Positions 7,816 through 43,039 of a stretch of DNA of 64,000 nt are shown in pieces. The DNA is from Schmidtea polychroa. Lineage: Eukaryota. The notes under the pieces are model-generated. The model ran no database searches, was not told the origin of the DNA, and saw only the letters and a list, made by a program, of their open reading frames with translations. The position numbers and the translations under genes were made by a program. The stretch covers positions 35,528,001 through 35,592,000 of the forward strand of contig CM097885.1 in NCBI GenBank assembly GCA_044892525.1, written 5' to 3'. Each line of letters begins with the position of its first letter. Within the stretch, counting starts at the first letter, position 1.

Positions 7816-8961
7816 AGTAGGTAGTTAGTAGCTTACGGGAACAATAGGGGGGGGGGTAAAAAATGTTGCAAAATTTTGATTGCATAACTTTTTCCTAGAC
7901 ATTTTTTGATTACATAATTGTTGCCATAATGCCCAATTTTTTCTGGGATTTTAAATACAAATTTTTTTTTTCAATAAACAAGCCAAGGATAAATATTATT
8001 TGGGTGGGTCTCCTTTGTCCTGAGAATTTCAATAGAAAAAGGTAGTCTTCAATAAAAAAGCATGGATTTTTCACACAATAGTGAGGGGGGTCTCGATGGT
8101 CCTGGGATTTTCAATACAAAAAGGCGGTCTCACTAAAAAAGCATGGTAATTTAAGGTCTCAGGATATTTTCAATACAAATAGGTGGTCTACACAAAAAAA
8201 AGCCAAGGATTTTTCGAATTAAATTAAGGTGGGTCTCCTTGGTCCTGAGAAAAAGGTGGTCTACACTAAAAAACGTGGTAAATTTTTAAATTAAAGTAAA
8301 TTATGGTTCTAAAAATTAAATTACAGTAAATTATGGCTCAAATTTTTGAATTACAGTAAATTATGGCCAAACTTTTTGAATTACAAAAAATTATGGTCCA
8401 AAAATTTCAATTAAAGTAAATTATGGTTCTAAAAAATTAAATTACAGTAAATTATGGGTCCAAATTTTTAAATTAAAGTAAATTTAGGTTCTAAAATATT
8501 AAATTAAAGTAAATAATTGTTCAAAATTTAAAATTAAAGTTAATTAAGGGCTCAACTAAGTAAATTAAGGTTCTAAATAATTAAATAATCAATGGTAAAA
8601 AAAAATTTAAATTAAAGTTAAATAAGTAAATTAAAGTAATAATTTTTAAATAAGTAAATTTAAGTAATGTAATAAGTAAATTAAAGTAAGATTTTTTAAT
8701 TTATTAACAAAAAAAATAGAAGGTGTTTGGGAATTGAAATTTTTTAATGAAAATTTTTATGAAATAATTTTTTAAGATAATTTTTAATGGATATTTTTAT
8801 GAAATATTTTTCAATGGTAATTTTTAATGAAAATTTTTATGAAATAAATTTTTTCATTAATTTTTAATAGAAATTTTAATGAAATATTTTTCAATGATAA
8901 TTTTTAATGGAAATTTTAATAGAATAATTTTTAAGATAATTTTTAATGAAAATTTTTATGA

Positions 8962-8965
<4 letters not shown>
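7816..8965 (+). repeat. Left terminal repeat region of C (GGTCCTGGGA/GGTCCTGAGA units, ~30-bp AAATTAAAGTAAATTATGG units, TTTTTAATGAAAATTTTTATG units)
   Basis: Same order of sub-arrays as the D arms; anchor ATAGAAGGTGTTTG near 8717. Confidence 0.85.
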
Positions 8966-8999
<34 letters not shown>

Positions 9000-9186
9000 T
9001 AATATTAATAATATATCAACCAAATACTATACAACACATAAAAAATTAACTAAACACATAAAAATAACTAGACACATAACAAAACATATAAACATTAACT
9101 AAACACATAAAAATGAACTAGACACATAACAAACATAAAAATTTACCAAATAACAAATGTAAAGATATAAAATTTATTCAATAAAA

Positions 9187-12100
9187 TTAGTCCTCATCGG
9201 ATAAAATAACGTCATCGATATCGATGTCATCTTCTCCAAAATCTTCATTTAATACTTCCTCATCTTCTCCATCATTTTCTCCAACATTTTCTGAAACATT
9301 TTCTGCAACAATTTCTCCAACATTTTCTCCAATATTTAATTCACTTAATCTTACATGCCCATATGCAAGACTAGTATTTTTCCCCACCCAAACCCTTTTG
9401 TCATCTTTGTTAGTTAGTGCTATTTTTGTGTTTTTAATTGTAAAAATTTGATGATTTTTGCTTGTTATTTTAGTCTGAGGAACCGAAAAAATCTGGTTAG
9501 TGTTATAACAATCCAGGTATGACTGATGTTTTATGTCACTACCTTTCAATGTTACACCTTTAGCCTTTTTTGTTTCCTCATCACCCAACAAGCTATAACA
9601 TTTAGGTCTAAGAAAAACCCATTCCTTATATTTAAGACCTTTATTCTCGTCTTTGAACTTTCCAATGACTGAATCAAGGTTCTTACTATATAAGGAATGA
9701 CAACTATTGTAATTGGAAGTATCCAATAAATTATCTCGAATCATTGCAGGTAAAAGAACCTCAAGTTTACAGTTAATGACTTCGAGGAAAAAGGAATCCG
9801 TATCACCTGCAACGATATTAATTTTACAATTAAACTCATTGCGAAATGATTCCAGATCCTTATATTGCAATTCATACATTCTAAGTTTAGATAGATCAAG
9901 TACAGATTGACCAATGTAACTTGGTCTATCTAAACATATAGAATCTGAATTCAATAATGCCGCGATTAAATTATTGTCTATTTTAATAGATTTTTTAAAA
10001 GTTGGCTTCGAAGAATATTTAACAAGTTTACCGGCAGTTGTACAAAGACGAAGATTCATTCTTCTCTTTAAATTTTCAACTGTTTTGCCGTATAAACTGT
10101 TATTTAGCAATTTATAATAATTTTTATCTAAGTTATTTATGCTTTTTGACCTTAATTCTGTATTTGTATCTATATATTTTTTAAAAATTGGAGATTGCTT
10201 AAATCTTACACCCCTATTTACACGTGTTACTTTAACACCAAGTTCCAAATATAATTTTAATAATCTCCAATGAATCACATAATTAGATTTTGGAAGATGA
10301 GTTAATAATAATTTTTCAACCTTAGACCCAGCAGGTTTCATTTTTTCAGCAGCTACAAGGAAATCATCCAACTTATCATGAAGCTCAGATGGAATTACAA
10401 GATCAACTTCAAGAGTGTATCCATAAGACAAAGATTCAAGATTTAAATTCCTACATTCATCCATTATTAAATCAAATCCATCAAGAACCCAACTAAATTC
10501 GCCACAAGGTAATGATTGACTTAAAGCCCAACCATAAAGATTATTAATATCTATATAAAGTAACTCGGTGTTCTCGTCGGTTTTTACGTAATGCTTATTC
10601 ACAAAAGTAAGACCGCCTCTTATTCCACCCTCATAAAAGCTAAACATTTCGTTTTCAGTTATGAGCTCAATTGGTTCATTTAAAGACATTAATGCAGAAG
10701 ACCAAGACATACCAGGAATTCCGAAATAATTCAATGGTTCCAATCTATTGTGAGCAATGGATTTCAACCGAAACTGATGAAAGAAATCAGCCAAAAGAAA
10801 ACAATCAAGTTTTAGGTAGATCATCATATAATCTAATAAAGTTACGCAATTAGTTTCTACCCAAATCTCCTGAGCTTTTTCATACTCAAGCTCAGTGACA
10901 CCCTCCCAGATTGGTGGTAATTCATAAGTAGTTTGGAGAATATCTAAAGAAGTGGCGAAATTATAAGGGAAGATTCCTTTTTCAGAAACTATAGTACCAG
11001 AAAAAGCAGAATTAGTAAAAGGCAAAGAATTCAAAGTTTTGACTGCTTTAGCTAAAGAATCATTGACAAATTGATAAGAATCAATGAATCTTAAGCTAAT
11101 TTTGCCTAAATGAGCAATCAAAGAAATAAATTTTTCAGTCGTTATTGGGATGCAACCTAAAGTCCAATTTTTAAATTTATTTAATCCGTATTTAAGTATA
11201 TGATGCATATCGTATCCCTTCAAGTTATGAAATACGATAGGCAAAATTTTATTTATTTTCCTATTTATGTTACAAGTGCTACAAGCTGCACCCAAGTATT
11301 TCCCCGTAAAATGATCGTGATCTCTAACAGGATCGACGATAGATTTCAAACAAAGATAGCAAACGGAAGCACTAAAAAATTGATGTTGTTCAATTTTCGT
11401 TAATTTAATCATAGGTTTCCTACCCATTTTATAATAAAAAGGAAGAACCTTATTTAATGCTATATCCTCTATAGCACTTAAAAAACTCTTGACGCAATCT
11501 AAACCTATGAACTGTTGATAAGATTTAGATTCATCAAAGTTATTTACAAGTAAAAGACCAGCAGATATTGGCATGTGTCGTTGGAAATGAAGATTATCAG
11601 AAGGTAAAATAGCCTCAAAATCGGCATAAACTACAAAAGGAGGAGTTACTGTTTTCGACCAGTCAGTAAACTGCAATAATTTATTTTGAGGGAAAGTGTA
11701 AAGAGTTGTTCCTAATTGATTACGTTTACATAATATTTCATGTTTTTCCAGTGCGTTTCTATTTTTAAAACCATTCAAACACCGATGGCACCATAATGAT
11801 TGTATGCTTGTAGGACAAGTAGTGTTGATACCACAATTCAATAACCTATTTAAATTACTTATAGCAACGTAATGGAAATTGTTTCCTTTATTTAATAGTA
11901 GTAAATTAATTACAGTTCCATTTAAAACTTTGGAACGATGTATAATGTCTAAATGTGGATGTTTTAAAACGTAATTATCTGTTAATTGTTTGCTATTGTC
12001 ATAAGAAAAAACGTTAATTATTAAGCCGGGATTTTTGGCCTCAAATTTTCTAATGTCTTTTAATTTCATGGGTAAATCTAACGGATTATATATTAAGTCG

Positions 12101-13594
12101 GATAAATTATAAGTGGATGTCCTATTTCTATATTGTCTAACAACCTCATCATATTTTAAAATAGCTAAAATGCTATATAAAAAACATGAATCATCGGTGT
12201 TTTTTATATTAATTAAACAATATTTATTTTTTAGATAAGTAGGTAGTTCAATGAAACTCCTACCACTTAATCTACTTAACCTACTTATTTTTGTTATAGT
12301 GAAGTGGATTTCTGTTATATTTTTTATAATCCAACTACTTCCTAACTCTGTAATATTAGTTATTTTCTCATTTAGTTCCCTAATACCTTCATCAAAAAAT
12401 GATGCAGTTAAAAGTTTTGCGTAATTGGAGATATTATTAACCTTTATTTCCCCGTCTTTTTCAAATTCGATTGTTATTCCGAATTGAATTTTGACGGAGC
12501 CTAATTCGTTAATAATATCTCGTAATTTTATAATTAATTGTTCAGGAAATATTATTTCCTTTATATTTAAGTCGCTAGTATTTAAACTTAATATTTGTTG
12601 GGTACCCCTTAGATCTTTTTGTATTATGGGAACATTACCCCCTATTTGTATTATATTTAATCCATCCCAAGAATCAAAGGAATTGAATAATCCGACCTGG
12701 GATTCAACAAAAGGCAATCCGACCTGGGATTCAACAAAAGGCAATTTGACCTGGGATTCAACAAAAGACAATCCGTCCTGGGATTCAACAACCAATCCAT
12801 CATTGGATTCAACAAAAGGCAATCCAGCCTGGGATTCAACCTCTAATCCGACCTGGGATTCAAAAGAAGAAGTATCTAATTTAATTTTTTTATTTGTATT
12901 ATTTTTTTCTATAGTTGAGGGTCTTTTAAAAACACTATCTTTTTTAAAATTAAACCTATCTAAATGATGTTTATGTTTATTATAAAAAACGCTATATGTT
13001 ACAGGGTCACTAGTCTTACATACGGGACATATAAAATATGTTTTATTATAATATTTTTTCGTGTAATAATTCTCCATTATAGAATGGCAATTATTATCAT
13101 GTTCTTTCGATGAACAATAATTTGGATAAAGTATACCTATAAAATAAAAATTTAATAAAAAAAAATATATAATTTAAATGAAATATTTTAATAAATGTTT
13201 ACGCATAAATTTACAAATTTTATTTACTAAAAAATAAAAATTTACTAAATTAAAAATATTAACATTTAATTAAATAAAAAATTATATTAAATTTCCTTTA
13301 AATTATATAAAAAAGTAATCAATACTTACATTGTAAATTTTCATTTCGATTTATTGACACATTGACAAAATTTTTCTCTTTATTCGTATTACCTAAATTA
13401 TTAATTAATTAAATCAATAAATAAAAAATTATGTTTACTTTTTCTTTTCAAATTTCCTTTAATCTTCGATTTTAAATTGTCTTCATTAATATTATCTAAA
13501 TTAATTAATAAATTAATTAATAAATAAATTAAAATTTACCAAATTCCTGAATTTTTCCTCGAACATTCATAACGTTTTCTATTAAAGAATTCAT
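9187..13594 (-). CDS. Intact pPolB, spliced: exons 13594-13540, 13495-13439, 13392-13330, 13136-9187
   Basis: Uninterrupted 1296-aa ORF with exonuclease and polymerase motifs (YADFE, FHNLKGYD, YIDINNLYG, KLLNNSLYGK, GDTDS), an endonuclease VII-like DHDH..C..CN insert and an INIKNTDDSCF OTU-like motif. Three GT-AG phase-1 introns (44, 46, 193 bp) join three upstream exons in frame. Confidence 0.92.
12668..12862 (-). repeat. Coding ~27-bp tandem repeat (VESQVGLPF) in the pPolB N-terminal region
   Basis: Repeated CCTGGGATTCAACAAAAGGCAAT units. Confidence 0.9.
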
Positions 13595-14849
13595 TTTTAA
13601 AGGTTAACTATTTGTTAAATGTGACTAATAATTGATTATTGTTTATAGATTATTATTGTTTATAGGAACAAATTCTAACCAATCAAAATCAAGGAAGGGT
13701 AGGGAAAAATATATTACGTTGCGGTATTTTAAAATTAAAATTTATTTTAAAAACACATTTTGATGTTAAAGTCGAGTTATGTAACAAAGACATAATAAAC
13801 TTATTATTTACTACAAATATTTCACCTATCAAATACCTAACTAGAGATGATATATATTGATTGTTCATAAAAGCAAACTTAATCATAAATTTCTGTATAT
13901 TATTTTGTAAATTATTTCAGTAAATTAAATTTTGTATATTATTTCTGTAAATTATCAAGTAAATTTAAAGTTCTTGATAAGGTTAACTGGTTTCTTAGCT
14001 TATGTTTTTTTTAAAAAGTTCATCAATGTGTAAATATTCTTAGAAAATTATTGAAAAAAAAATATTTAGTCAAATGCATTACAAAGTCATCTAAAATTAA
14101 ACCAATTACTTAATTATTAACATAACAGTCATTAAAAAAAAATTAATTTTTATTTAAAATTTAACAAATTATCAAGAAATTCAATTAAAATCATCATTAA
14201 AACTTTAAATTTTTTAATAAATCAACATGAAATTCTTAGAAATATGAAAAAAAAAATATTATTACAAAGTTATATCCTATCACATGATTATTAACCTGAC
14301 TGTCATTAAAAATAATTTTTATTTAAAAAAAAAACCAATCAATTAAAATGCATCCAATTATCAAGAAATTAATTAAATTTATCTTAGAACTAACTTAAAA
14401 TTTTTAAATATTCATTCAATCCACATGAAATTCACGAAAATGATAAAAATTCACAAAAACCATCAACTCTAAAAAAAATAATTACTAATGAATACCTTAA
14501 ACACCAAAATTTATCTAAATAATCTTTCAAATTAATTCATTAAAATTGAAGACAACACGCTCTATTTTGTTATTACATTCAATTAAAATTAAATAAATCA
14601 AGATAAGAACTTTGATAAAAAATATTATTCTAAAATGGTAAAAATTAACACTGTAGTGTCAAATTAAAAGGTAATTATTCTTTAAATCTAATTAACTTAG
14701 TCATAATTTTCTTTAATTTAACCCTTTATTTACTTAATTTAGTCCTTGTTTACCGAATATAGAAGTTTAAAATATAGACCATTGATTACTTTAATTTAAA
14801 AATGTATCCTTAATTTACATAATTTCAATCTAAAATTATTTCAAAAAAT

Positions 14850-15850
14850 TTTTTCTAAAATTGTCATTGAAAAATATTTCATAAAAGTTTTCATTTAAAA
14901 TTTTCATTGAAAAATATTTCATAAAAATTTTCATTAAAAATTTTCATTGAAAAATATTTCATAAAAATTTTCATTAAAAATTATCTTAAAAATTATTCCA
15001 TAAAAATTTCATTAAAAAATTTCAATTCTCAAACACCTTCTATTATTTTGTTAATAAATTTAAAATCTTACTTTAATTTGCTTATTACATTACTTATTTA
15101 AAAATTATTACTTTAATTTACTTATTTAAAATATTTGACCATTGATTACTTAATTTAAAAATTTTTTTAACTTAATTTACTTTAATTCAAATTTGGACCT
15201 TAATTTACTTTAATTGAAAATTTTAGACCATAATTTACTTAATTGAAATTTTAGACCTTAATTTGCTTATTTATCTTTAATTTACTTAAGTTTAAAAATA
15301 TATACCATAATTTACTTAATTGAAATTTTAGACTTTATTTTAGAACTTAATTGAAAATTTTAGACCTTAATTTCATGTAAAATTTTAGACCATAATTTAC
15401 TTATTTGAAAATTTTAGACCTTAAATTGCTTAATTGAAAATTTTAGACCTTAATTTGCTTATTTATCTTTAATTTACTTAAGTTTAAAAATATATACCAT
15501 AATTTACTTTAATTTAAAATTTTAGACCATAATTTCATGTAAAATTTTAGACCATAATTTACTTATTTGAAAATTTTAGACCTTAATTTACTTAATTGGA
15601 AATTTTAGACCTTAATTTGCTTATTTATCTTTAATTTACTTAAGTTTAAAAATATATACCATAATTTACTTTAATTTAAAATTTTAGACCATAATTTACT
15701 TAATTGAAAATTTTAGACTTTATTTTAGAACTTAATTGAAAATTTTAGACCTTAATTTGCTTAATTGAAAATTTTAGACCATAATTTACTTAATTGAAAA
15801 TTTTAGACCATAATTTTAATGTAAAATTGTCATTGAAAAAATTTTCATTT
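14850..15850 (-). repeat. Inverted, diverged copy of the C/D subterminal arrays (probable right TIR of C, truncated by E)
   Basis: CAAACACCTTCTAT near 15030 is the reverse complement of the 8717 anchor; TTTTAGACCATAATTTACTT units; TTTCTCAGG at ~15848 mirrors CCTGAGAAA. Confidence 0.75.
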
Positions 15851-16102
15851 CTCAGGCGCCGTTTATAGTAGGTAGATAGTGGCCCGCTGCAAATGCAAGC
15901 CTTTTTTTATGCTGCATCTTTTTTTTGCTGCAACATTTGATTGCGCAATTGTTGCAACTTGTTTTTTTTGTATTGAAAATTCTAGGAAAAAAAAATACAA
16001 TTGCGTAATAATACAAAAAAAATACAACAAAAAAACTAGTTCAAACAATTGCGTAATCAAAAGTTGCAGCAAAAAAAAAGTTGCAGCAGAACCCCTCCCC
16101 CA

Positions 16103-23125: not shown

Positions 23126-25934
23126 TTAAATTTGATCTTCGTCCCATTCGCTGTCGTCAAAACTGGGACTTGGAGCTGGACCGAATTCCTCATCATATTC
23201 GCTTAATTCGTCAACTCCTAGATAGTGCCCAAATGCGTAACTTATGTTTTTTCCTAGCCACGCGCGCTTATCATCATTATTACTTAGGGCAATTTTCGAA
23301 TTTTTAAAAGTAAAAAGTTGGTGATTTCTAGTACCTATTCTAGTCTGCGGTACAGAAATCACCTTATTTGAATGAAAGCAATTTAGATATGTTTCATGAT
23401 TTATTGATGTCCCTGGTAATTTAACCCCCTTCGCTTTTACCGTTTCCTTACTACCTAAAAGACTATAACATTTAGGACGTAAGAAAACCCATTCAGAATA
23501 ACCTAATCCCTTGCTCTCATCTTTAAACTTCCCGATGACCGAGTCAAGGTTCCTATTATACAAGGGGTGTGTTGGATCGTAATTTGACGTATCCAATAAA
23601 TTATCAGAGATCATCTGAGGTAATAGAGTTGTTAATTTTAAATTTTTTATTTCTAGAAAAAAGCTGTCGGTATCACCGGCAATAATATTTATAATACATT
23701 TATATTGACGTCTGTACTTCTCCAAATCAATATATTGGAGCTGATACATCCGCAGTTTAGACAGATCTAGTACTGTTTGACCGATGTAGCTAGGTCTGTC
23801 TAAACAAATTGAATCTTTTTCCAAATGTGCCGCAATCAGATCGTTATCGATTCTTATAGACTTTCTGAAAGTCGGCTTTGAGGAGTATACTATCATCTTT
23901 TCGGATGAATTACACAACCTCAAATTCATTCGTTTTTTCAGATTTTCAACGGATTTACCGTACAGACTGTTATTATACAATTTAAACAAGTCCCTATATA
24001 TCTCGCTAGTAGACTGAGATCGTAAAGTGGTGTTGGTGTCTATGTAGGATTTAAAGATAGGTCCTTGTTTAAACTTTATACATCTATGAATATTTACAAC
24101 AACCGCACCTAATTCTATATACAATTTGAGAAGCCTCCAATGAAGAACATAGTTCCTCTTTGGCCAATGCGTAAGCATAAGCTTCTCAACTTTTGAATTA
24201 GGCGGGCACAACTTTTCCGGCGCAAGCGGAAAATCATTCAAAAAGTCATGCACACATTCCGGAATATCGATATCGACCTCCATAGTATACCCATATGGAA
24301 GGTTATCAATATCCGTGTTCATACATTCAAGTAAAACATCATTCAAGTTATTATTCACCCAAGAAAAATCACCATACGGAAGATTTTGGCTAAGAGCCCA
24401 ACCATATAAATTATTTATATCAATGTACAATAATTCTGTATCATCTGAAGTAGCCGTGTAATGTTTGTTAACAAATGTTAACCCACCCCGGATACCTCCC
24501 TCATAGAAATTATACATTTCCATGTCCTGCAAAAGTTTTATGGGTTCCGTTAATGTCATAAGCGCTGAGGCCCATGACATACCGGGAATCCCGTAGAAAT
24601 TAAGAGGATCCAGACCATTGTAAGCAATTGCCTTACCGCGGAATTGCTGAAAATAGTCTGCGAGGAGGTATACGTCCAATTTTAGGTAGATTAACATATA
24701 ATCTAACAAATTATTACAGTTATGCTGACTCCAAATTAGTTGAGCCTCAGCGTACTGATCTTCCGTAACATCAGAGCAAATAGGAGGTAATTCTAAAGTC
24801 GATTCAAGAACATCCAAAGAAGTAGCGAAATTATATGGAAAGATACCTTTAGAGTGAATCATCGACCCTTGAAAGACAGACGAAGTTAACGGAAAAGTAG
24901 TTAAGGTTTTCACAGCTTTGGCTAAAGAACAATTAACAAATTGCATGCTGTCAATAAAACGAACAGGCAATTTGTTAATATATGCAATTAAAGATATAAA
25001 TTTTTCTGTAGAGGTAGGTATAATATTAAGTTCCCAAAGGGGAAAATCACTGAGACCATGTTTTAAAATATGGTGGAGGTCATAGCCTCGTAAATTATGA
25101 AAGACAACAGGTAACAACTTATTAATCCTGCGAGAGACATTGCATTTCCTACATGCCGCTCCGACATATCTACCTGTAAAATGGCAATGATCTCTCACAG
25201 GATTAATAATAGCTTTTTTACACAAATAACAAATAGTGGTAGATCGAAAGGCACGCTCCTGAGCAAAAGACAAAGTAGACATACCTTTATGACCTTCAAG
25301 TTCATAATATGGCAGGACAATTGTGACAGCAATTTCCTCCACTTTCCTCAAAAAATCCAAAATACAATTAGGTCCAAAAAAATAATAATAAAATTTAGTG
25401 TTTGTATAATTATTAATTAATAAAAGACCTGCTGATATGGGTAAATGTATTTGATGATATGTTTCATGTTCTGGTAAAACCGATTCAAAATCAGCATAAA
25501 TTACGAAGGGAGGTGTAACGGTTTTTGCGTAATCTGTGAATAATAAATCCTTATTTTTAGGAAGTGTATACAAGGTTGTGCCAGTCTGATTTTTACAGCA
25601 TAGAGCAACATGCTGATCGAAAGCATTCTTATATCTAAAGCCATTTAAACAATGTGGGCACCAGTTACACCTTATTTGAACATTTACATTTTCATTTAAA
25701 TGACAATTCATTAATTTGTCCAAGTCTGTCACTGCCGTATAATGATATTTATCTTTATTACTCAAAAGTAATAAATAAATCGGCCTACCATCTATAACCT
25801 TGGAGCGATGTATGATATTAAGATGAGGGTGGTGAGCTACATAATCCTGAGAAATATCACAATCAGAACTGGCTGGATTATACGAAAGAACGTTTATGCT
25901 TAATTTTAAATCACGATTTTTCCTTTCAAATTTG
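23126..25934 (-). pseudogene. pPolB of element A, 3' part (separated from its 5' part by insertion B)
   Basis: Full exonuclease and polymerase motifs. Removing B and one TSD gives CPMRLCNIPK-FERKNRDL, matching CPMKLCDIPKFERKNNDL of X. Confidence 0.94.
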
Positions 25935-26267
25935 AGTAGTGAGGAATCTATGCACCCCAGCACCCCCACCCTAAAAAAAAACAGCGCTATTGACCCATAT
26001 TTTCCACATTTATATGCTTTTTTACCCCATATTCTTCACTTTTTTTAACTTTTAAACTTTGTCCCCTATTGCCATTAACCCTTAATTTCTTCCCTTAAAA
26101 GTAAAAAAGTTCGGAATAGATGTATTTATAGATTAGTAATTCCGAGAAAAGGTAACGGGGTGCATAGATTCCTCACTACTTGGTCTTAAGGATTTAATGT
26201 TATAAGGATTTAATGTTATAAAAATATCAGATTACCTAATTCATAATGATCTAGGTCGCCTGATCAC
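25935..26267 (+). repeat. Left TIR of B, with an internal inverted copy of the terminal 24 bp at 26157-26180
   Basis: Near-perfect reverse complement of 40834-41165. Confidence 0.96.
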
Positions 26268-26313
26268 CTTAAGGTTTTGAAAGTTTTAAAAATAAAAAAT
26301 ATTATGAAATAGT

Positions 26314-26702
26314 AAAACTGCTCTGAGAGGACAGTGGTTTTTTTTTTTTTTTTTTCACTGTCCTCTCAACAGTTTTTTTTTTGATCCGGATCATTTTTTT
26401 TTATTCAACCTCTTTCGTTTATCAAATCTCTTCCAATATACAAGCTGGCCAGACTCATACATCAGAATCAATTCGATAATAGCAGCACACCTTATTATTC
26501 GCTTCTCGCTCGAATACGATTTCATCGGCGTTTTAAGTGTGCTGCTCGAAAGTACAAATGAATTCGAAAGCGAATCCGAAAGAGGTCCGAAAACAACTGA
26601 GAAATAAATGTGCACATTACCGGAATCGATCCGGGGGTGTTCGAAAGACAGGTGGCGATAATTACCGGTTCGCCACCATCACCCGTTTCAATATTTTTTT
26701 TT
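26314..26702. ncRNA. Putative structured RNA/ssDNA region
   Basis: 13-bp stem 26324-26336/26356-26368, 10-bp stem 26481-26490/26537-26546, 8-bp stem 26651-26658/26670-26677; five CGAAA motifs; T-run at the end. Confidence 0.4.
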
Positions 26703-26849
26703 CATATTTATGTTTAAAAAATAATTAATTAATAAAAAAATAAAATAAAATAAAATAAATAAAATAAAATATACAAGTACTTTATAAATATAAGATACCC
26801 ACACTATTATTTTCAAATTTTTAATATTATTTTATGTTGAAAAAAAACT

Positions 26850-26923
26850 AACCTCAGATGTGATTTGAACCACTATCCATTTGAACCACTGTGCCAGTCT
26901 ATTCCCACTGCGCCATCAAGGTT
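26850..26923 (-). ncRNA. tRNA-like putative Pol III gene 3
   Basis: A box TGGCGCAGTGG, duplicated B box GGTTCAAAT, followed by a T8 run; overlaps the end of ORF 26873-27169. Confidence 0.5.
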
Positions 26924-27169
26924 TGAATTTTTGTCATTTTTTAGACTATAAATAATCGATTCAAGTTCTTTAACTCTTTCCTGTAATTGTTTCATTTTCT
27001 TTAATCTTATATCAGCAACATCTACAGCCTTCATATAAAAATGTCGATACTTTTCATTATCTACCATCAACTCTTTGATGTATTCTAATGGTTCTTCTTC
27101 TCTTCTTTTCATTCTCTTATGTTTAACTTCATTCAATTCATTTCTCATTCTTTCTTTTAACTCATCCAT
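26873..27169 (-). CDS. Hypothetical small coiled-coil protein of B
   Basis: 98-aa ATG ORF with an AAAAATG context like other B genes; charged, helical composition. Confidence 0.55.
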   Translation of the reverse strand: MDELKERMRNELNEVKHKRMKRREEEPLEYIKELMVDNEKYRHFYMKAVDVADIRLKKMKQLQERVKELESIIYSLKNDKNSNLDGAVGIDWHSGSNG

Positions 27170-27337
27170 TTTTATAAATATTTTTTTATTGGATATATTA
27201 ATTTTTGGTAGCTTAAGTTAAAACGTTTTTGATCTTAAATTTCCAAGAGTTGCCGTTGACCAATCTCATTAAAAATTTGTACAAGTACTAAATCGAGTAT
27301 GCTGATCAATATTTCGTTAAAAAAAATTGAAAAAAAA

Positions 27338-27410
27338 TGACCGAAATGGGATTTGAACCCATTGGTATTGGCAATGCAGTCGAGTGCTATTACCACTAAG
27401 CTATTAGAGC
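27338..27410 (-). ncRNA. tRNA-like putative Pol III gene 2 (GCA at the anticodon position, anticodon stem unpaired)
   Basis: 73 nt; A box TAGCTTAGTGG; D stem GCT/AGC; perfect T arm ATGGG-TTCAAAT-CCCAT; T-run immediately downstream. Confidence 0.62.
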
Positions 27411-27579
27411 TATACTCAATATAAAATAAGTTGTTAATGTGTGACTATTTATTGATGAAATTGATAATTAATTATTCATTTTCTCGACAACTACCACTCA
27501 GATCCATCTGAAAATTTAAATATATACTAAAATAAGTACGCTGAATCAGATTCCGTTGAAAAAAAATATCGATAAAAAT

Positions 27580-27653
27580 TGACCAAAATCGAAAATTGAA
27601 CCCGGTACTCCCGGTGATAAAATTGAAGCCTATTCCCACTCAGCTATAATGGC
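27580..27653 (-). ncRNA. tRNA-like putative Pol III gene 1
   Basis: 74 nt; A box TAGCTGAGTGG; B-box-like GGGTTCAAT; same GGTCA 3' end as gene 2; T5 downstream. Confidence 0.5.
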
Positions 27654-27709
27654 TTACATAATATATTTAATTATTCCTATTTTATGTGTGTAAATTTTAA
27701 TATATAAAA

Positions 27710-29002
27710 ATGAATAACATAAATCTTAAAATTCAAGAAAAAAATAAATTAAATATTGATTATAATAAAGAATTTACTCATGAAATTAAAAAAAATGATA
27801 TTTTAAAAATCTCCCCTACGTCAGGATCGATTGCAAACTTAAATCGTAGGGGTGATATAGTTTTTCAATCTCTTCAAACATCAAACCCTATAGATATTTG
27901 TAATGCCAAATTATATTATAAAATCGAATTAGAAATTGAAGCAAACAAAGATATAACCCTAGAAAATAATTTCTTTCCAAATTTATTCTCCAACATGAGA
28001 TTAAAACTAGGATCATCAGAAATTGAAACTGTTTTGCATCCGGGAGTATATTCTACAATGTTAAATTTTATTTTGACTGGTTGTGATTATAAAAACGAAT
28101 ATGGTGAATTAACAGGTTGGATTCCTGATGTTAATAAAGGGGATTTAGATAAAGATGGTTTAGATGTAAACCATGGTTACCATAAAAGAGCTGAACTTTA
28201 TAAATCTAAAAAATTTGAAGGTTATTTTGAATTAAAACACTTGTTTGGATTCCTTCAAAACTATAATCGTATACTTCATAATGTTTTTATAGAATTCATC
28301 TGTAATAGAGTAGAAGGTGATAAAAGATTGTTCTATGGAGCTGTAGATACAAAAGCTAAATTAAAATTATCAACACTTGAATTACATATACCTGAATGGA
28401 CATTAAACCCACATTCTGAGATTAAACTCCTTGAAAGATTAAATTCCAACAAGTCTATAAATGTAAATTATTTAAATAGAATCTGTAGTGAATTTAGTAT
28501 GACAGAGGGTTCAACATATTCTATAAAGGTAGCAAATTTAGCATACCGACCAAGATATATCTTGATTGGATTCAAAGAAGTAGATTCATCTTTCCAAAAA
28601 AATAACAACTTGTTTATTCAAAAGATTGGAGTTGATAATTTAAAAACAATCCAAATTCAATTAAATAGTTCTTATTATCCAATAAATAGAATGGAATTTA
28701 ATATTGAAAATAATGAAAACATATTCCCATATCTAAATTATATTGAAACATGTTATGATTTCAAAGTTGAACCGCAATTAAGTTTAGAAGATTTCAAAAA
28801 TTTATATTCTATATTTTGTATAAATGTTTCAGACCAAGATGATCGCCTAGCCATAAATAATGTTGATGTTACACTTCATGTAACAAAGGATTCTAATTTT
28901 AAAGCTAAAGTATATACATTAATATTAGAAGAAAAGAAAATAGAAATGAAATTATATGGTGGAAAGATTTCAATAATCGAAAATGTTAGGGGAGATTCTT
29001 GA
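27710..29002 (+). CDS. Double jelly-roll major capsid protein of B
   Basis: 430 aa; NLNRRGDIVF, NNFFPNLFS..L, PRYILIGF, LNSSYYP, IFCINVS motifs typical of Polinton MCPs; gene context. Confidence 0.85.
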   Translation: MNNINLKIQEKNKLNIDYNKEFTHEIKKNDILKISPTSGSIANLNRRGDIVFQSLQTSNPIDICNAKLYYKIELEIEANKDITLENNFFPNLFSNMRLKLGSSEIETVLHPGVYSTMLNFILTGCDYKNEYGELTGWIPDVNKGDLDKDGLDVNHGYHKRAELYKSKKFEGYFELKHLFGFLQNYNRILHNVFIEFICNRVEGDKRLFYGAVDTKAKLKLSTLELHIPEWTLNPHSEIKLLERLNSNKSINVNYLNRICSEFSMTEGSTYSIKVANLAYRPRYILIGFKEVDSSFQKNNNLFIQKIGVDNLKTIQIQLNSSYYPINRMEFNIENNENIFPYLNYIETCYDFKVEPQLSLEDFKNLYSIFCINVSDQDDRLAINNVDVTLHVTKDSNFKAKVYTLILEEKKIEMKLYGGKISIIENVRGDS

Positions 29003-29031
29003 TATAATCCCTGATATTTTAACATTTTAAA

Positions 29032-30441
29032 ATGTCTCTAAATAAATATTGGAGATGTGAAAGTTGTAATTGTCAAGTTACAAGACATCATAAAGCAAGT
29101 CATTTAAAAACTAAAAAACATACAGGAGGTGATCTAATTCCACGAGCTGGAGGCGATTTGCAATCTTCAAAAACAACATCTTCAATATTAAAACCTTTTA
29201 CTACAGAAAAATATCCAGGTGAAAGACATTTATTTAAACACAACTATACTGGACCAGGAACACGTCTAGATATTAGATTAGATGAAAATAATAATCCCAA
29301 ACAAGGAGAAGAACCAATAAATAGAATTGATCAAGCAGCTTTAAAACATGACATTGCATACAATTCAACAAATCTTAGAGATAGACATGTTGCAGATGTG
29401 AATTTAATACATGATTTAAATAGTATCCAAAATCCATCAACCCAAGAAAAGGTTCAAAGAGCTCTAGTTAAATTAGCAATGAAAGGTAAGATTTTCATAG
29501 GCTTAGGACACAGTCCGATCACCATGGGTGCAAGACTTCCTAGAATAGCAAAAGATGTTGCTTATAAAAAGATTATCGAACAATCAGACATTGAAAGATC
29601 CCTCGAGAGTACAGCCAAGACTAGTTTACAAACCCCAACAGAATCAGAAATAAAATATGCAAAGGAATTACACCATGAATTTAGAAAAAATAAAAAATAT
29701 TTAAAAGTTCAAGTACATGAAAAAGATCAAACATGGTCTGCAGATTTAGTCTTTATGCCCAAATCATCAGACCCTGAAAAATATAAAATAATTTTAACTG
29801 TAATAGATTTATATACAAGATTTGCTTTTGCAAGGTGTTTAGAAAATAAAACAGGATATTCTATTACAGAAGCATTTGAAAATATATTTGAAGAAAATCA
29901 AAGAATCCCAAAATATTTATGGTGTGATAAAGGAACAGAATTTTATAACAAAGTTTTTACAAAGTTTTTAAATGAAAATGATATTAAATTATATTCAACA
30001 GAAAACGAAGGAAAAGCAGTCGTAGTTGAAAGATTAAATAGAACATTAAAAAATAAAATGTGGAAATATTTTACTGCTATTGGAAAACAAAAATGGAACA
30101 ATGAATTGTTACAAAAGATTGTAAATGAATATAATAATGATGTACATAGTTCTATAAAATTAACACCTTTAAATGCTTCCATGAAGCCTGAAACCATTAA
30201 AGTGGTAAATATTGAAAATGATGTTATTGAAAAACCAAAGTTTAAAATTGGTGACCGAGTAAGAATATTTAAATATAAAAATTAATTTGAAAAAGGATTC
30301 ACAGCAAAATGGACAAATGAAATTTTTATTATAAATAAAATAAATTATACAACTCCAATAACATATAGCATCTTTGATTTAAATAATGAAAAAATATTAG
30401 GTAGATTTTATAATAATGAACTACAGAAAACTGATTTTTAA
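29032..30441 (+). CDS. Zinc finger + parvovirus-type PLA2 (PLA2X) + rve integrase fusion, with a premature TAA at 30283-30285
   Basis: CESC..H..H; HNYTGPGT..D.AALKHDIAY; WSADL, IDLYTR, CDKGTEF, VERLNRTLK. The frame continues after the stop as FEKGFTAKWTNEIF..GRFYNNELQKTDF*. Confidence 0.92.
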
Positions 30442-30452
30442 GTCGACAAGCC

Positions 30453-31244
30453 CTAAAACAAACTTTTCCATATTTCAGCTTCTTCTCTATCCAAATAAAT
30501 ATAATTATATTTTTCTTTCCAATGATTATCAACAAACATATCAAACATATTCTTATCAGGTTCAACATTTGAAAATAAATCATTATAAATCATATTCTTA
30601 TCACGGCGATCTAATTTAAAAAATATAAAACAATTGGAATTATTTCTTATTGAATTTTTATCTAAAGCATAATATGTTTGAGATATATAAATAACATTAC
30701 AATTATTATGTCGACCTCGTGTAAAGTAACTCTTTTGAATCTCTTGATTTTTCATGTTGACAACATCATCAAATATAACTAGATTCTTTTTATCTTTAGG
30801 AAGTAAATCACAATGTAAAACATCTTCAGGTTTATTAGAGAATAAAACTTGAATTGCCTCCTGCCCTTCTTCACAAATATAATCATTTTTATTACTAATA
30901 TCTGATTCTAAAATCTTTTCCTTATACCAATCAACCATATCACAAGGTTGAAAAACTTCTTCAGGACACCTATGTTGATTTTTAAAAATATCAATTATTG
31001 CTTTTTTAGTTAATTTATTTTCAAATCCACATTTCAAAAGTTGTAATTCTGGTTGATTTATGGTTGTAGAATAAAAGATTAAATTATTATAATCTAAAAA
31101 ATCATCTTCAAGTAACATTCTCAAAACAAGTACATTCTTTCCACATCCAGAAGAACCAACAATTAATAATCTAAAATTATCAGGAAATACTTTATTATTG
31201 AATTTACTCTTATGTCTATTTAAAATTGGTTTCCAAGTATCCAT
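30453..31244 (-). CDS. A32/FtsK-like DNA packaging ATPase
   Basis: Walker A GSSGCGKN (variant), Walker B LVIFDD, FTRGRH..ISQ, IRNNSN. Confidence 0.93.
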   Translation of the reverse strand: MDTWKPILNRHKSKFNNKVFPDNFRLLIVGSSGCGKNVLVLRMLLEDDFLDYNNLIFYSTTINQPELQLLKCGFENKLTKKAIIDIFKNQHRCPEEVFQPCDMVDWYKEKILESDISNKNDYICEEGQEAIQVLFSNKPEDVLHCDLLPKDKKNLVIFDDVVNMKNQEIQKSYFTRGRHNNCNVIYISQTYYALDKNSIRNNSNCFIFFKLDRRDKNMIYNDLFSNVEPDKNMFDMFVDNHWKEKYNYIYLDREEAEIWKSLF

Positions 31245-31260
31245 TTTTATTTATTATAAA

Positions 31261-31839
31261 ATGACAACTGAAGAATCTTTGCAAGAATTAATAAATTCAA
31301 ATAAAAATAAATCAGTAGTAATTGATGGTAAAAAATATTTTATTGGAAAACATGTAAAAGAACAAGTTAGAGCGAAGCTCCACGAAGCTAAAGAAGGTGG
31401 CATTCTTCCATTAGCTGCTTTAATACCTGCAATCATTGCTGGTTTATCAGGTGCTGCTGGAATAGCTGGAGGAATTGCAACTACAGTTCAAAAAGCTAAA
31501 GAATCTCAAAAGACAGACCTAGAAAAAGAAAAACTACAAACTGAAATCGATTCAATGAAGAAGGTAGGGCAAGCTAAAGGGGGAGTGTCCGTTGGAAAGG
31601 GTCTCTATCTTAATCCATATGAGGGGAGTCGGCAAAAGTCTCAGGGCAAAGGTCTCTATCTTGATCCTTATAAAGGTAGAGGTTTAAATGATTTTTTAAA
31701 AAATCAAATTTCTACATCTGAATCTTTATCTTCAAAAGATAAAGAAGATTTAAAAAAAATATGTAAATCTTTAAAGAATGGATGCCTTTGTAAAACTAAA
31801 AATGGTAAAGGATTATACTTGAAGCCCTTCGAACTATGA
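31261..31839 (+). CDS. Putative virion core / membrane-active precursor with adenain-type cleavage repeats
   Basis: ATG 31261; EGG-ILPLAALIPAIIAGLSGAAGIAGG hydrophobic segment; three GKGLYLxP repeats. Confidence 0.7.
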   Translation: MTTEESLQELINSNKNKSVVIDGKKYFIGKHVKEQVRAKLHEAKEGGILPLAALIPAIIAGLSGAAGIAGGIATTVQKAKESQKTDLEKEKLQTEIDSMKKVGQAKGGVSVGKGLYLNPYEGSRQKSQGKGLYLDPYKGRGLNDFLKNQISTSESLSSKDKEDLKKICKSLKNGCLCKTKNGKGLYLKPFEL

Positions 31840-31861
31840 TACCATTTTTGATACCATTAAA

Positions 31862-32755
31862 ATGGTATATGAAGAAAGATTAGCACTTTTAAAAAAATTA
31901 CAATCAGAACAAGATAAATATAATAAAAAAGATACAACTCAACATGCTGAATCTATAATATTAAATGAGGTAATAACACAACAACAGGGGCCAACAATTA
32001 AAGCTATAAAAGAGTTGGAAGATTTCAATGAGCAAGCAAAATTTAAAGAGTTAGAAGATAAAAAACAAAAAATAAAAGAACTAGAGTGGCAGGATAAAGA
32101 AAAAGAATCCAGTGAAAACCATCCTGAAAGTCATTCTGAAAGAAATCAAAGAAAACGCAGAAGAATTTCTAATGTGGAAGAAGAAGAAATGTTTTTAAAA
32201 ACAAAACCTCTTAAAGTTGATCCTAAAATTAGAGATGATTTACCTCCTTCAATTAGACCCACATTTAATACTAATACTGAAGGATATCAAATAATAACAA
32301 TTAATAAACAAAACTTTACTTTATATTCAAATTCAGAAAATAAATCACGTATTCATTCACAAAATGTTTATAATAATGAATATTTAGACTTTGAATTTAC
32401 AGATGATTTTTATAGATTACTTTGTGGATATTCTTCAGATGATGTTGAAGAAATTAAAAAATATTTAAATTTAATAAAATTAATAAGAGCTAGTTCTAAA
32501 GCAAAATATATTCAAGATTTAAAGAATTATTTAAATAAAAATGAAAAGGGTTATGTTGTTACAGAGGGAGAGGGATTAATTAGTGAAGGTGGTAAACCAA
32601 ATCCCATCAATCTTTTTATTGAATTAAGAAAACTATTAGCTGCAAGGAAAGCAGGACATAATAATTTAGATTCTGATATTTTAAAGATTTCTAAAGATTT
32701 GTTAAAACAAGGAATAATTTCAAAAGATAAATTTAATAAGTATACGAAGTTATAA
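31862..32755 (+). CDS. Conserved Polinton protein of unknown function (putative virion protein)
   Basis: C-terminal GEGL..LRKLLAARKAGHNN..I..I...L...GII motif recalled from Polinton proteins. Confidence 0.65.
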   Translation: MVYEERLALLKKLQSEQDKYNKKDTTQHAESIILNEVITQQQGPTIKAIKELEDFNEQAKFKELEDKKQKIKELEWQDKEKESSENHPESHSERNQRKRRRISNVEEEEMFLKTKPLKVDPKIRDDLPPSIRPTFNTNTEGYQIITINKQNFTLYSNSENKSRIHSQNVYNNEYLDFEFTDDFYRLLCGYSSDDVEEIKKYLNLIKLIRASSKAKYIQDLKNYLNKNEKGYVVTEGEGLISEGGKPNPINLFIELRKLLAARKAGHNNLDSDILKISKDLLKQGIISKDKFNKYTKL

Positions 32756-32777
32756 ATACGAAGTTTTAAAATACAAA

Positions 32778-33203
32778 ATGACTCCTTCAATATTAGATTT
32801 TTTAAAAACATTTGGAATAAATGCAAAAACAAATTTTGATTTAAAAGATTATGCAAATTATTTAAATTTAAAAATTAAAATATTAATGAATGATGAATTA
32901 TCAAGTCTGGAGAGTCCCCTGAATATAATAATCAATTATCAAAATTCAAATGAAAAAGGATCTCATTGGGTTTGTATATATAAGAAATCTATCTACTTTG
33001 ATTCTTTTGGGATTAAACCTACTAAAGAAGTTGAAGATTATCTCTTGAGGGGTTCTCCGATTGATTCCCCAAATGGTTATACTTTTAACTCTTTACAAGT
33101 TCAACCTTTGAATACTAAAATATGTGGTATTTTAAGTTTATATGTTTTGTATAGATTGAATAAGGGAGAGAGAAAGGGCATACGCAGGATTTTGAATCTA
33201 TAA
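32778..33203 (+). CDS. Adenain-like cysteine maturation protease
   Basis: GSHWVC, YFDSFG, Q..NTKICG give the His-Asp-Gln-Cys catalytic pattern. Confidence 0.92.
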   Translation: MTPSILDFLKTFGINAKTNFDLKDYANYLNLKIKILMNDELSSLESPLNIIINYQNSNEKGSHWVCIYKKSIYFDSFGIKPTKEVEDYLLRGSPIDSPNGYTFNSLQVQPLNTKICGILSLYVLYRLNKGERKGIRRILNL

Positions 33204-33289
33204 TTCAAGAAATTTATAATGATCTAGAATCTCTACTATAAGGATTTTTACTATAAGGATTTTTACTATATGAATTTACTACTAAAGAA

Positions 33290-34054
33290 ATGGAGCTTCA
33301 CAACCCTCCGGAAGATAATTTAAAAAAAATGGTAAACATAATGTCAGATAAATATTCAAGAACTTTATCTATAAATTCAAAAGAATCAGACTTTACTGTA
33401 AACTTTCAAGATTCAATTAAATTAGATCAAAATTTAAATTATGAATTGGGGCTATTATGGTTTTGTGCTTATAATACTATTTTTAATATAACTAAAGATA
33501 ATAATAAATTTACTATTTAAACTCGTGATGGGCATAAACCAGAAATTATAACAATAGAACCTGGGGCATATGAGATAAAAGATTTAAATGATATACTTTC
33601 TAAAAAAACAAATGAAGGTATTAAAATTAAAATGGATATACCAACTTCAAAATGTGTAATGACTTTGAAGAATATAAAAATTAGTTTTTTAGATAATTGT
33701 TTCTTTCACACAGTTTTAGGATTTAAACCTATGGATATAACAATAAAAGAAGATAAAATAATAACATCAGAACATATTATAAAAATAATAAATACAAACA
33801 CAATAAATATTCATTGCGATTGTATAACAGGTTCTTATAATAATGGTAAACAAACAAATGTTTTATATTCCTTTCCCTCAAACACAGTTCCTATGGGATA
33901 TAAAATAGTTGAAAGAATGAATCCTCCAAATTATTTACCTTTATGTAGAAAATATATAATGGATATTAATTTTAAAATTCTTAATCAAGAAGGAGAATTG
34001 ATTGATTTTAATGGAGAAGAGATTTCAATGTATTTACATTTGAAACAGGTTTGA
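33290..34054 (+). pseudogene. Minor capsid (penton-like) protein of B with an in-frame TAA at 33518-33520
   Basis: Both ORFs share a frame; YELGL..YNTIFNIT..NNKF, PGAYEIKDLN, INIHCDCITGSYNNG, PMGYKIVE, IDFNGEEI. Confidence 0.88.
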
Positions 34055-34078
34055 AGATTCATTTTAAATTATTAATAA

Positions 34079-35089
34079 ATGAGTTCTTATATTCCATGTA
34101 ATAGAGGTGGTGGAACAATAAAAACAGGGTTTAATACAGAAGAAATATTAACTTTAACAGAAAATAAATATATTAATGAAAGAGGTGATTCAATGAAGGG
34201 TGATTTAATTTTAAATGGACACAAGATAAAAGAATTATCTTTTCCAACTGATGAAGCTGATGCAGTTAATAAGAAATATGTAGATGGTGTTAAAAAATAT
34301 ACTGATTTAACAACAACAAGAATTGAAAGTTCATTAACAACAAAAATTGATTCAATGGAATCAAAGCTTAATAATATCGAACAACGATTTAATGATAAAT
34401 TTGACAAGTTACAAAGTCTGTTAACTGAACAAGTTGTAAAGTTAAATACTGCTATATTAAATTCTAAAGATAAACAAATTATGAATACTAAATTTAATGC
34501 AATATATAATATAATAAATGAGATGATTACATCATTTAATAAAAGAATTTCAAATTTAGAGTCTCATGGAACACACATTAACACCACACATAGTATTAGA
34601 AAAAGAGCTGCTGAATTAGAACAGAATAAAACATTATTACCCCATACATTTAAACATTTTATAGAACCAAGTTTAATAACAACAAACAGTAAAGAATGGG
34701 GTGTTTTTATGGTTGTAAAAATTATTGATCCTTATTTCTTTTTGTTTGATGATGATAATGAAAGAATGAAATGGTTTGTGAAATGTGATTATAATAGTAA
34801 GCTTGAAAAGGGTGATGTTATAATGACTAGTTATGATTTACCACACGGAGATTGGTATGTTAATACTCATTCACATGGACTACATAAAGTTAAAAGTAAG
34901 AATATTCATTTTTCTAGTTCACTTGTACAATATATAGATTTAATATTTTATGAAAAAAAGGTTGATGTTGATGAAGTTCGTAAAGCATTGAGAGAATTGT
35001 ATAAAGATATCCTCTCAACAAGAGTTTCTTTTGATATCCGAGTATTGGTACCAGATGGTGCTCAGAAGAATAAAGTCTTATTTTTTTAA
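34079..35089 (+). CDS. Putative fibre/spike protein
   Basis: GDSMKGDLILNGHKIKELSFPTDEADAVNKKYVD fibre-type repeat, then coiled coil and a globular C-terminus; follows the penton gene. Confidence 0.6.
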   Translation: MSSYIPCNRGGGTIKTGFNTEEILTLTENKYINERGDSMKGDLILNGHKIKELSFPTDEADAVNKKYVDGVKKYTDLTTTRIESSLTTKIDSMESKLNNIEQRFNDKFDKLQSLLTEQVVKLNTAILNSKDKQIMNTKFNAIYNIINEMITSFNKRISNLESHGTHINTTHSIRKRAAELEQNKTLLPHTFKHFIEPSLITTNSKEWGVFMVVKIIDPYFFLFDDDNERMKWFVKCDYNSKLEKGDVIMTSYDLPHGDWYVNTHSHGLHKVKSKNIHFSSSLVQYIDLIFYEKKVDVDEVRKALRELYKDILSTRVSFDIRVLVPDGAQKNKVLFF

Positions 35090-35097
35090 TTATTAAA

Positions 35098-35688
35098 ATG
35101 GAAGAAGTAAGAGAAGAAAAAATTTACCCAGAATTGAGATCATCAGGATATTATTCTTCTAAGGCCTCGGCTCCCACAGAACTTGAAATTATGAGAGTAA
35201 AAGAATTTAAATCAGAAACCTTACATTTACAAGATTTATTAAAGCATTATAAAAAAATTAAAAATAGATGGAATAAAGGGAATACAGTTTTAAAAGTTAT
35301 AGGTTATTCTTTAGGATTTGCATCTGCAATATTAACAGTTATTTTACCCATAACTTTACCAGTTGTTACTCTTGCACCTGTAATACTTGGAAGTATTTCT
35401 GTGGCTGATGGTTTCTTAACTGAAATAGTTTCATTATCTTATACTTCTAAAAAGAAAAGTTTATATAGAGAAGTTTGTTTATCAATAGAATTAGGAATCT
35501 CTAAATTATTTTTATTTCAATTAAAAGCTTTGGAAGATGGAATCCTGACAGACGAAGAAATAATGAAATCAAATCAAATAATACAAGATATAAAGAATGA
35601 GGTTATAAGATTAAAAATGGAGGGCATGGTGGCTAATGTTATAAGTAATAAAAAAACATCTCGAGAAAAATGGTTAAAGAATTCTTAA
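35098..35688 (+). CDS. Membrane-hairpin protein (resembles the adintovirus GasderminX family)
   Basis: Basic helix, ~40-aa hydrophobic hairpin, KKK, KALEDGILTDEE. Confidence 0.6.
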   Translation: MEEVREEKIYPELRSSGYYSSKASAPTELEIMRVKEFKSETLHLQDLLKHYKKIKNRWNKGNTVLKVIGYSLGFASAILTVILPITLPVVTLAPVILGSISVADGFLTEIVSLSYTSKKKSLYREVCLSIELGISKLFLFQLKALEDGILTDEEIMKSNQIIQDIKNEVIRLKMEGMVANVISNKKTSREKWLKNS

Positions 35689-35788
35689 TTATAAAATGGG
35701 TGTATTTTTAAAAAAGTAGATCAGGTTGCTATAGTTGCTTAAATTAATTGTCGACATTTTATTATTAAAAAATTAAATATCGTTGGTT

Positions 35789-36343
35789 TCAGTTATGGTT
35801 GAAAGCCAACCTATGAATCATTAATTTATGATCTTTAAATTCTTTATCACTTAGACCTTTTATATATTCAGGATCAGTATTAAAATATTTAAGTTCTAAA
35901 CATATAGGATTAAAAACTTGAGAATATAAAGGTTTCTCGATTTCTCTCTCGGGATAAATAATTTCAACATTATAAATATCAAGATCAGTAATCTTTGTAT
36001 CATATAACTTATTCAACTTTTCTAGATTTTTTATTATAGGGATTAAATTATTTCCAATAGGTAGAGTTGTCTTTAAATCACTTAGTATGAATCTCTTATC
36101 ATCATAATTTGATAATGATATTTTTTGAGATTCTATCAAGTGAATATCATGGTTTTCACTTTTAAGTTGATGTATTTCATCAATTTTATCTTTATGATTT
36201 GGATTCAATGTATCTATATAATCTTGATGAGAAAGATTCTTTGCAACCACTCTCTGTATTCCTTTACATCTGTTATCCTTTAAATTAGTAATATTTTTTA
36301 TAATTTCAAAAATGTTATTTTCTTGATTTTTAGTTTCCATCAT
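35789..36343 (-). CDS. Stand-alone paralogue of the pPolB C-terminal (thumb + tail) region
   Basis: KGIQ..HQDY..LKSE.H.I.L..NYDDKRFILSDLKTTLPIGN.LIPIIKNL..LKYFNTDPEYI shared with the adjacent pPolB; has its own ATG. Confidence 0.8.
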   Translation of the reverse strand: MMETKNQENNIFEIIKNITNLKDNRCKGIQRVVAKNLSHQDYIDTLNPNHKDKIDEIHQLKSENHDIHLIESQKISLSNYDDKRFILSDLKTTLPIGNNLIPIIKNLEKLNKLYDTKITDLDIYNVEIIYPEREIEKPLYSQVFNPICLELKYFNTDPEYIKGLSDKEFKDHKLMIHRLAFNHN

Positions 36344-36367
36344 TTTATAGTGTTAAAATTCTAATTC

Positions 36368-40760: not shown

Positions 40761-40833
40761 TTTTAAAAGAATTTTTTGGTTGGATACGATGTTTTGGTTT
40801 TGATATTAATTTTTATTTTCTTTAAATCTAAAA

Positions 40834-42578: not shown

Positions 42579-42659
<81 letters not shown>

Positions 42660-42708
42660 AAAGAGAAGTAGCTGCATGCTCACTGCAAACTACTGTATAC
42701 GGGGTTTG

Positions 42709-42770
<62 letters not shown>

Positions 42771-42859
42771 AAAGAGAAGTAGATGCATGCTCACTGCAGA
42801 CTACTATGTAGCTGCATGCTTACTGCAAACTACTGTATACGGGGTTTGATTATTATTTA

Positions 42860-42892
<33 letters not shown>

Positions 42893-42952: not shown

Positions 42953-43039
<87 letters not shown>

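Follow-up and report, generated by a model that had tools for sequence, protein, structure and literature searches.

The 64,000-nt stretch of Schmidtea polychroa DNA analyzed here as a whole (hereafter, the window) contains the transposable elements A, B, and C, with B nested inside A. Element C carries a polymerase (pPolB) gene on the minus strand. The main landmarks are as follows:

7816..15866, traceable extent of element C, with a AGTAGGTAG terminus at 7816
25935..41165, element B, a nested, complete-looking Polinton with AGTAGT termini and a 6-bp target duplication
41178..42377, minus strand, Cys/His and TP part of the A pPolB gene, broken by a frame change and a stop
23126..25934, minus strand, 3′ part of the A pPolB gene, interrupted by nested element B

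The arms of C (about 8000-9000 and 14770-15830) are inverted, repeat-built, and about 70% alike; the right arm is cut at 15867, and no right end was found. The only ORFs of at least 100 aa between 7900 and 20900 are pol and a frame antisense to it; no integrase, ATPase, protease, or capsid gene accompanies the pol of C. The initial designation of C as a Polinton thus holds for its pPolB, which is of the Polinton type, but not for the element, which has only pol between its arms: C is a polymerase-only remnant rather than a full Polinton. Without the other Polinton genes it may be silent, and it is possible that, with its intact gene, it acts as a helper for non-coding derivatives.

Element A carries Polinton genes besides pol, and a RING-finger ORF (21787-22308; PF13920, E 1e-9) lies downstream of its polymerase. 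Element B encodes a capsid protein (PF21738), an ATPase (PF04665), and a fusion of integrase with a PLA2-like domain (PF08398 plus PF00665), and its divergent pol, with N-terminal C2H2 fingers, is split by frame changes. No introns were seen in the pol or core genes of B, our within-host control, and introns are therefore no general outcome of residence in this host. A 15.7-kb element (48150-63806) with the same AGTAGGTAG termini as C and a 6-bp target duplication is inserted in the start of a minor-capsid-like ORF of A; its 7.07-kb arms are perfectly inverted, it has almost no coding content, and it represents either a giant non-autonomous derivative or, in part, an assembly fold-back. Decayed fragments at 4200-5200 and 6129-7162, judged by eye, are presumably of hAT-like transposase and retroelement-like origin, and a Pfam profile scan of two ORFs among them returned no match. 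The window includes no host gene.

Polymerase gene and Cys/His domain of element C

The fourth and last of the predicted C pPolB exons encodes, in this order, a Cys/His domain, a repeat linker, a TP-like domain, a vOTU, exonuclease and polymerase motifs, and an acidic tail:

9187..13136, minus strand, exon 4, 1316 codons to the stop at 9187, open throughout
12960..13136, minus strand, Cys/His domain, C-x4-6-C-x4-5-H-x2-5-C, then C-x2-C-x14-17-H-x2-H
12286..12609, minus strand, TP-like (little-finger/PAD-like) domain, model match 4ir1_F
11845..12246, minus strand, vOTU-like protease domain, Cys in the 12195 motif and His in the 11877 motif, OTU fold matches

The exonuclease and polymerase motifs of family B were all located in exon 4. 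Exon 4 is 61-62% identical to two other polymerases in the window, and the 3′ part of the A gene is 62% identical to C. A window paralogue at 1294-3297, for which 69% identity to C was also measured, matches PF03175 (E 2e-27), and C itself returned no PF03175 match in Pfam. This third pol paralogue (1-3297) has an in-frame stop near 1291 and its 5′ end outside the window. The exonuclease region of both C and A (about 11270-11370 in C) contains a weak endonuclease VII-like Cys/His stretch (PF02945, E 0.003, below cut-off).

Folding of the residues encoded from 12627 to 11824 together with 21 relatives yielded a TP-vOTU model with a pLDDT of 88.9. Its TP half (residues 8-114) matched 4ir1_F, the little-finger domain of Pol IV (Z 8.3, rmsd 2.4, 90 aligned), which belongs to the same PDB entry as that used in PMC11161782. 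The vOTU half (residues 128-261) matched OTU chains (Z 6-7, 95-106 aligned), and the best viral fold match was a Drosophila-associated adintovirus protein (E 8e-18). The gene of C is a Polinton/adintovirus-type pPolB. Polinton pPolBs are described as containing a TP and vOTU pair in a TP-vOTU-EXO-PALM layout (PMC11161782), and C likewise has catalytic motifs and, by predicted fold, TP-like and vOTU domains, as do the Polinton/Maverick (adintovirus) PolBs of that study (Alpha type of PMC8502044). It differs from them in its predicted four exons and in the extra N-terminal Cys/His domain, for which there is no Pfam family.

The pattern of this domain suggests two metal (zinc) sites. A Pfam search with it returned no family (best E 0.026-0.07, below cut-off), a single-sequence model of its 74 residues was weak (pLDDT 60) and had no PDB match, an Atlas search gave a best score of 0.75, and none of three candidates for longer proteins carrying the domain proved to be one. 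Homologues of the C block were found as 10 domains in 9 other loci, all from metagenomes; weak tblastn rows for L061 and L006 were dropped as non-homologous. In all ten domains, an ATG lies 2-7 codons ahead of the first Cys, which itself stands 4-6 residues before the second, and the first Cys is also present in P0029. One metagenome locus has a separate ORF with the Cys/His domain (L004:61-735); immediately downstream lies a pol gene bearing a further copy of the domain. P0009 contains two part-copies in tandem.

Predicted introns in the pPolB leader

Upstream of exon 4, three introns are predicted on the minus strand, each GT-AG, all phase 1, and very AT-rich:

13540..13594, minus strand, predicted exon 1, 55 nt, ATG at 13594
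13496..13539, minus strand, predicted intron 1, 44 nt, phase 1, GTAAAT...TTTAG, GC 4.5%
13439..13495, minus strand, predicted exon 2, 57 nt, basic stretch at its end
13393..13438, minus strand, predicted intron 2, 46 nt, phase 1, GTAAAC...TTTAG, GC 8.7%
13330..13392, minus strand, predicted exon 3, 63 nt
13137..13329, minus strand, predicted intron 3, 193 nt, phase 1, GTAAGT...TATAG, GC 8.3%

The original prediction of three phase-1 GT-AG intervals with internal exons of 57 and 63 bp was confirmed in its coordinates, phases, and stop-free exons. Donors (GTAAAT, GTAAAC, GTAAGT) and T-rich acceptors (TTTAG/TATAG) fit the context of the U2-type consensus. Exons 1-3 contain no stops and have a GC content of 17-27%; the GC difference between introns (16/271) and exons (39/175) is significant by Fisher test (p 5e-7), an optimistic value given that the boundaries were picked by eye. 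Removal of all three introns keeps the frame open, with frame conservation seen for intron 3 only, and retention of intron 1 would introduce a stop after 21 codons. Splicing would yield a protein of 1374 residues. The unspliced ORF (13173-9187) opens after a stop at 13173 and has its first ATG at 13077. ORF-based annotation would accordingly truncate the protein, as had been proposed, by 78 residues and half of the predicted metal-binding domain, but it keeps the TP, vOTU, and catalytic domains. Within intron 3, additional GTAA donors and TAG acceptors would permit an in-frame phase-1 cassette of 24 or 42 nt (13226 or 13244 to 13203).

The mini-exons of C are a low-complexity linker, not a fold. 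Basic and acidic stretches of the leader could be candidate localization or SUMO-binding motifs. Leader exons of A (window 44115-43710) and of a metagenome relative (L016:2000-2068) contain hydrophobic-plus-acidic words, which we take to resemble SUMO-interacting motifs.

A chain of the same kind precedes the polymerase of A:

43710..44273, minus strand, leader of the A pPolB gene, ATG at 44273, four exons (49, 63, 105, and 201 nt) and three introns (47, 49, and 50 nt)
42378..43709, minus strand, last intron of the A gene, 1332 nt long, phase 1, rich in (AAT)n

All four A introns are GT-AG and phase 1, with a GC content of 6-18%, and the exons are open and acidic (GC 33-40%). The last junction, at 43709 and 42378, is that of C (CAAT/GTAAG ... 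AG/GTA, slashes marking the splice sites), in agreement with the proposed identity of this junction in the two elements, but the A intron is 1332 nt long. The leader exons differ between C and A, the best of 12 cross pairs reaching p 0.026, which leaves exons 1-3 of C without a homologue; they are predicted from composition, frame, and promoter position only.

Intron 3 of C interrupts the codon for the first conserved Cys of the Cys/His domain. Both C and A obtain their C-x6-C solely across the last splice junction, the unspliced frame holding a Gly at this position in C and a stop in A. That the junction builds this Cys, as initially claimed, is borne out by its presence in 10 of the 10 homologous domains from the 9 other loci. 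The second Cys, the His, and the third Cys are invariant in all 11 aligned domains and all lie upstream of the internal Met at 13077, the first in the ORF; residues upstream of this Met are therefore translated, and the conservation implies a protein constraint there for which the splice is needed.

In DNA this rich in AT, GT..AG pairs turn up frequently. We applied a chain-finding rule that was drawn up once the C introns had been seen and is hence generous as a test; it recovered three introns in the real C DNA and at most one in each of 2000 dinucleotide shuffles. When it was applied to 139 acceptor-like control sites in AT-rich parts of the window, four returned at least two introns, all of them within the C leader. 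Among 24 rows of a sequencing-run search, 20 contain part of the stretch, and none is listed as RNA.

Motif matches upstream of the predicted ATG are compatible with a promoter:

13641..13664, minus strand, two TATAAAC boxes, 53 and 70 nt upstream of the predicted ATG at 13594
-89 relative to the predicted C ATG, minus strand, ATTGG (CCAAT-type) motif match

A single TATAAAC box precedes the predicted ATG of A, at -62. The window contains fewer copies of this word than chance predicts (18 observed vs 33 expected), and 3 of its 18 occurrences are those before the C and A ATGs. TATA-like boxes were found at most 110 nt upstream of 11 of 12 starts in relatives, and one such word also lies 94 nt upstream of the internal ATG 13077 of C.

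We consider it highly probable that the C pPolB leader is spliced, with three phase-1 introns, a Cys supplied by the junction, and a 1374-residue protein. Judged from sequence features, intron 3 appears very well supported and introns 1 and 2 a little less so. An improbable variant is one in which only the last intron is real or upstream splicing differs (another start, or use of the intron 3 cassette) and exons 1-3 are partly wrong: homology fixes just the last junction, and the spare GTAA and TAG sites in intron 3 allow the open 24- or 42-nt cassette, but one rule applied across the window gives no long chain other than this three-intron one, the TATAAAC boxes lie directly ahead of 13594, and use of the cassette would shift the Cys spacing off the C-x4-6-C of all 10 relatives. 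Less likely still, and in our view very unlikely, is that there is no splicing, the protein beginning at ATG 13077 and the upstream GT-AG pattern reflecting AT-rich chance or a decayed leader. The Met at 13077 is indeed conserved in 10 of the 11 aligned domains, and a database gene call (P0001) begins at the equivalent internal Met. However, three invariant residues (C, H, and C) precede this Met, none of the 2000 shuffles reached two or more introns, and A has an independent four-intron chain with the same end junction.

Predicted introns and module order in metagenome relatives

To the predicted splicing of C and A we add a comparison with related loci. A metagenome profile search confirmed 330 of 514 candidates, and 80 loci were kept; single-protein locus searches gave no matches in metagenomes or viral contigs, nor did an alignment-query search of viral contigs. 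The chain rule for relatives was set after some loci had been seen, and it recovered the chains previously picked by eye. Applied to 64 anchored loci, it gave chains of 3-5 introns (42-53 nt) for five, a single interval for two, and nothing for the other 57; the single-intron chains in L037 and L071 were treated as chance and left uncounted. Overall, the introns of relatives measure 40-53 nt and fall in the same N-terminal region, with one leader intron in L006 and two in L008, and other relatives are intronless. The length of the first exon fits the frame in all five loci that include the ATG. In each of the four loci inspected here, the conserved TP-vOTU boundary is interrupted at the same site, near the proposed cleavage place, by a 43-nt phase-1 GT-AG interval:

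L006:735-777, TP-vOTU boundary intron, 43 nt
L007:153-195, TP-vOTU boundary intron, 43 nt
L008:718-760, TP-vOTU boundary intron, 43 nt
L013:291-333, TP-vOTU boundary intron, 43 nt

With the near-copies L012 and L007 left out, phase 1 accounts for 24 of 28 introns; these events are not independent. The four exceptions all stem from L016, where four of five introns are phase 0. At the Cys position that holds the donor in C and A, this locus has TGTAAGT as coding sequence, which hints that a latent donor in ancestral coding sequence may have been put to use as the C/A intron.

Module order varies among these genes. A Zn-TP order without intron is seen in L002, L003, L004, L005, L009, and probably L010; Zn-linker-TP in L016, L017, and L020; linker-TP in L006 and L008; and linker-Zn-TP in C and A. 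A quick, midpoint-rooted tree intersperses rows with introns among rows without them and unites C, A, and the third window paralogue in one group (SH-aLRT 99). L011 contains a duplicated exon (53/66 nt identical), exons 3 and 4 of A show a weak likeness (p 0.002, one of 21 pairs), and within C no exon duplication was detected (exon pairs p 0.5-0.64; introns 1 vs 2 p 0.05).

The intron feature of C and A is lineage-wide, not special to these two elements. It is most improbable that the introns are recent post-integration insertions (introner-type transposons or copy-specific decay) not inherited in active elements, even though A is a broken copy, C a remnant, and introners in dinoflagellate polinton-like elements are reported as mostly post-integration gains (10.1101/2025.03.18.643946): 7 of 7 introns lack terminal repeats (6-8 matches of 15), the five short introns of the window show no family likeness (p 0.04-0.05 at best, in 2 of 10 pairs), C and A share the last junction with polymerases 62% identical, and one intron site is common to divergent relatives. 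An introner-derived origin was accordingly not supported for the introns of the window, which show no repeated family and no terminal repeats.

Proposed mechanism and relation to known elements

Host Pol II would, in the nucleus, start transcription of C pol near the TATAAAC boxes upstream of 13594, and the host spliceosome would remove the three GT-AG phase-1 introns, the last junction supplying the first Cys of the Cys/His domain. The vOTU may then cut behind TP, as hypothesized in PMC11161782, so that leader, Cys/His domain, and TP would stay attached to the DNA-end primer. We read the introns themselves as a gene structure passed down within one Polinton lineage, presumably gained in a fast-changing, insertion-tolerant N-terminal region, and their phase-1 bias probably arose from duplication and reshuffling of symmetric exons, because exons of this kind leave the reading frame unchanged. 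We saw no sign of a regulatory switch. More tentatively, and as less likely than not, we entertain that one lineage turned its pPolB N-terminus into an exon-shuffling cassette with phase-1 introns at module borders: two-zinc, acidic or basic linker, and TP modules would have been duplicated or reordered between co-resident families, an ancestral Cys-Lys codon pair would have contained the latent donor that became the C/A intron, replication would depend on host splicing, and polymerase-only, C-type elements could serve as helpers for non-coding derivatives with the same termini.

Small upstream exons have a precedent in adenovirus, where the E2B mRNAs for the polymerase and the pre-terminal protein have their start codon in one; there, a distant shared exon adds few residues and is part of alternative splicing. 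C pol is a related protein-primed polymerase, likewise with a predicted start codon in a small upstream exon, whereas here several host-type introns of 42-53 nt are predicted, one of them in a conserved codon, with no sign of a shared leader.

That Polinton core genes are usually annotated as intronless, as the original prediction stated, agrees with the papers covered: intact vertebrate Mavericks have no introns, intron-like gaps being scored as decay (PMC8097293), and in nematode Mavericks the core genes are intronless and cargo genes (wasp, krma) contain introns (10.1101/2022.07.12.499685). As the nematode elements show, Mavericks are able to take up and disseminate genes that are spliced; the cargo there is host-derived (10.1101/2022.07.12.499685), whereas the gene predicted to be split here is a core replication gene. 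Dinoflagellate polinton-like elements bear introners, which are repeated, transposon-derived, and mostly gained after integration (10.1101/2025.03.18.643946); these elements share with C, by its predicted structure, the presence of spliceosomal introns. Each C-type intron, however, is unique and AT-rich; nearly all are in phase 1, they lie solely in the N-terminal part of pPolB, and divergent elements have them in common.

We found no report of a spliced Polinton pPolB in the literature covered; Repbase, subscription journals, and supplements, which may annotate such exons, lie beyond that scope. Passages from PMC12220804, PMC8363768, 10.1101/2023.08.22.554363, and 10.1101/2024.03.25.586562 contain none. 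For a spliced Polinton pPolB, the dinoflagellate introners are a partial precedent.

If this lineage splices its polymerase, surveys would miscall live elements as fossils, since intact Mavericks are recognized by their intronless ORFs (PMC8097293). Surveys would also clip the pPolB N-terminus, which by prediction remains attached to the DNA ends, and the elements would be tied to nuclear transcription. Because sister elements with and without introns coexist, the lineage would further offer a compact case for intron gain in viruses.
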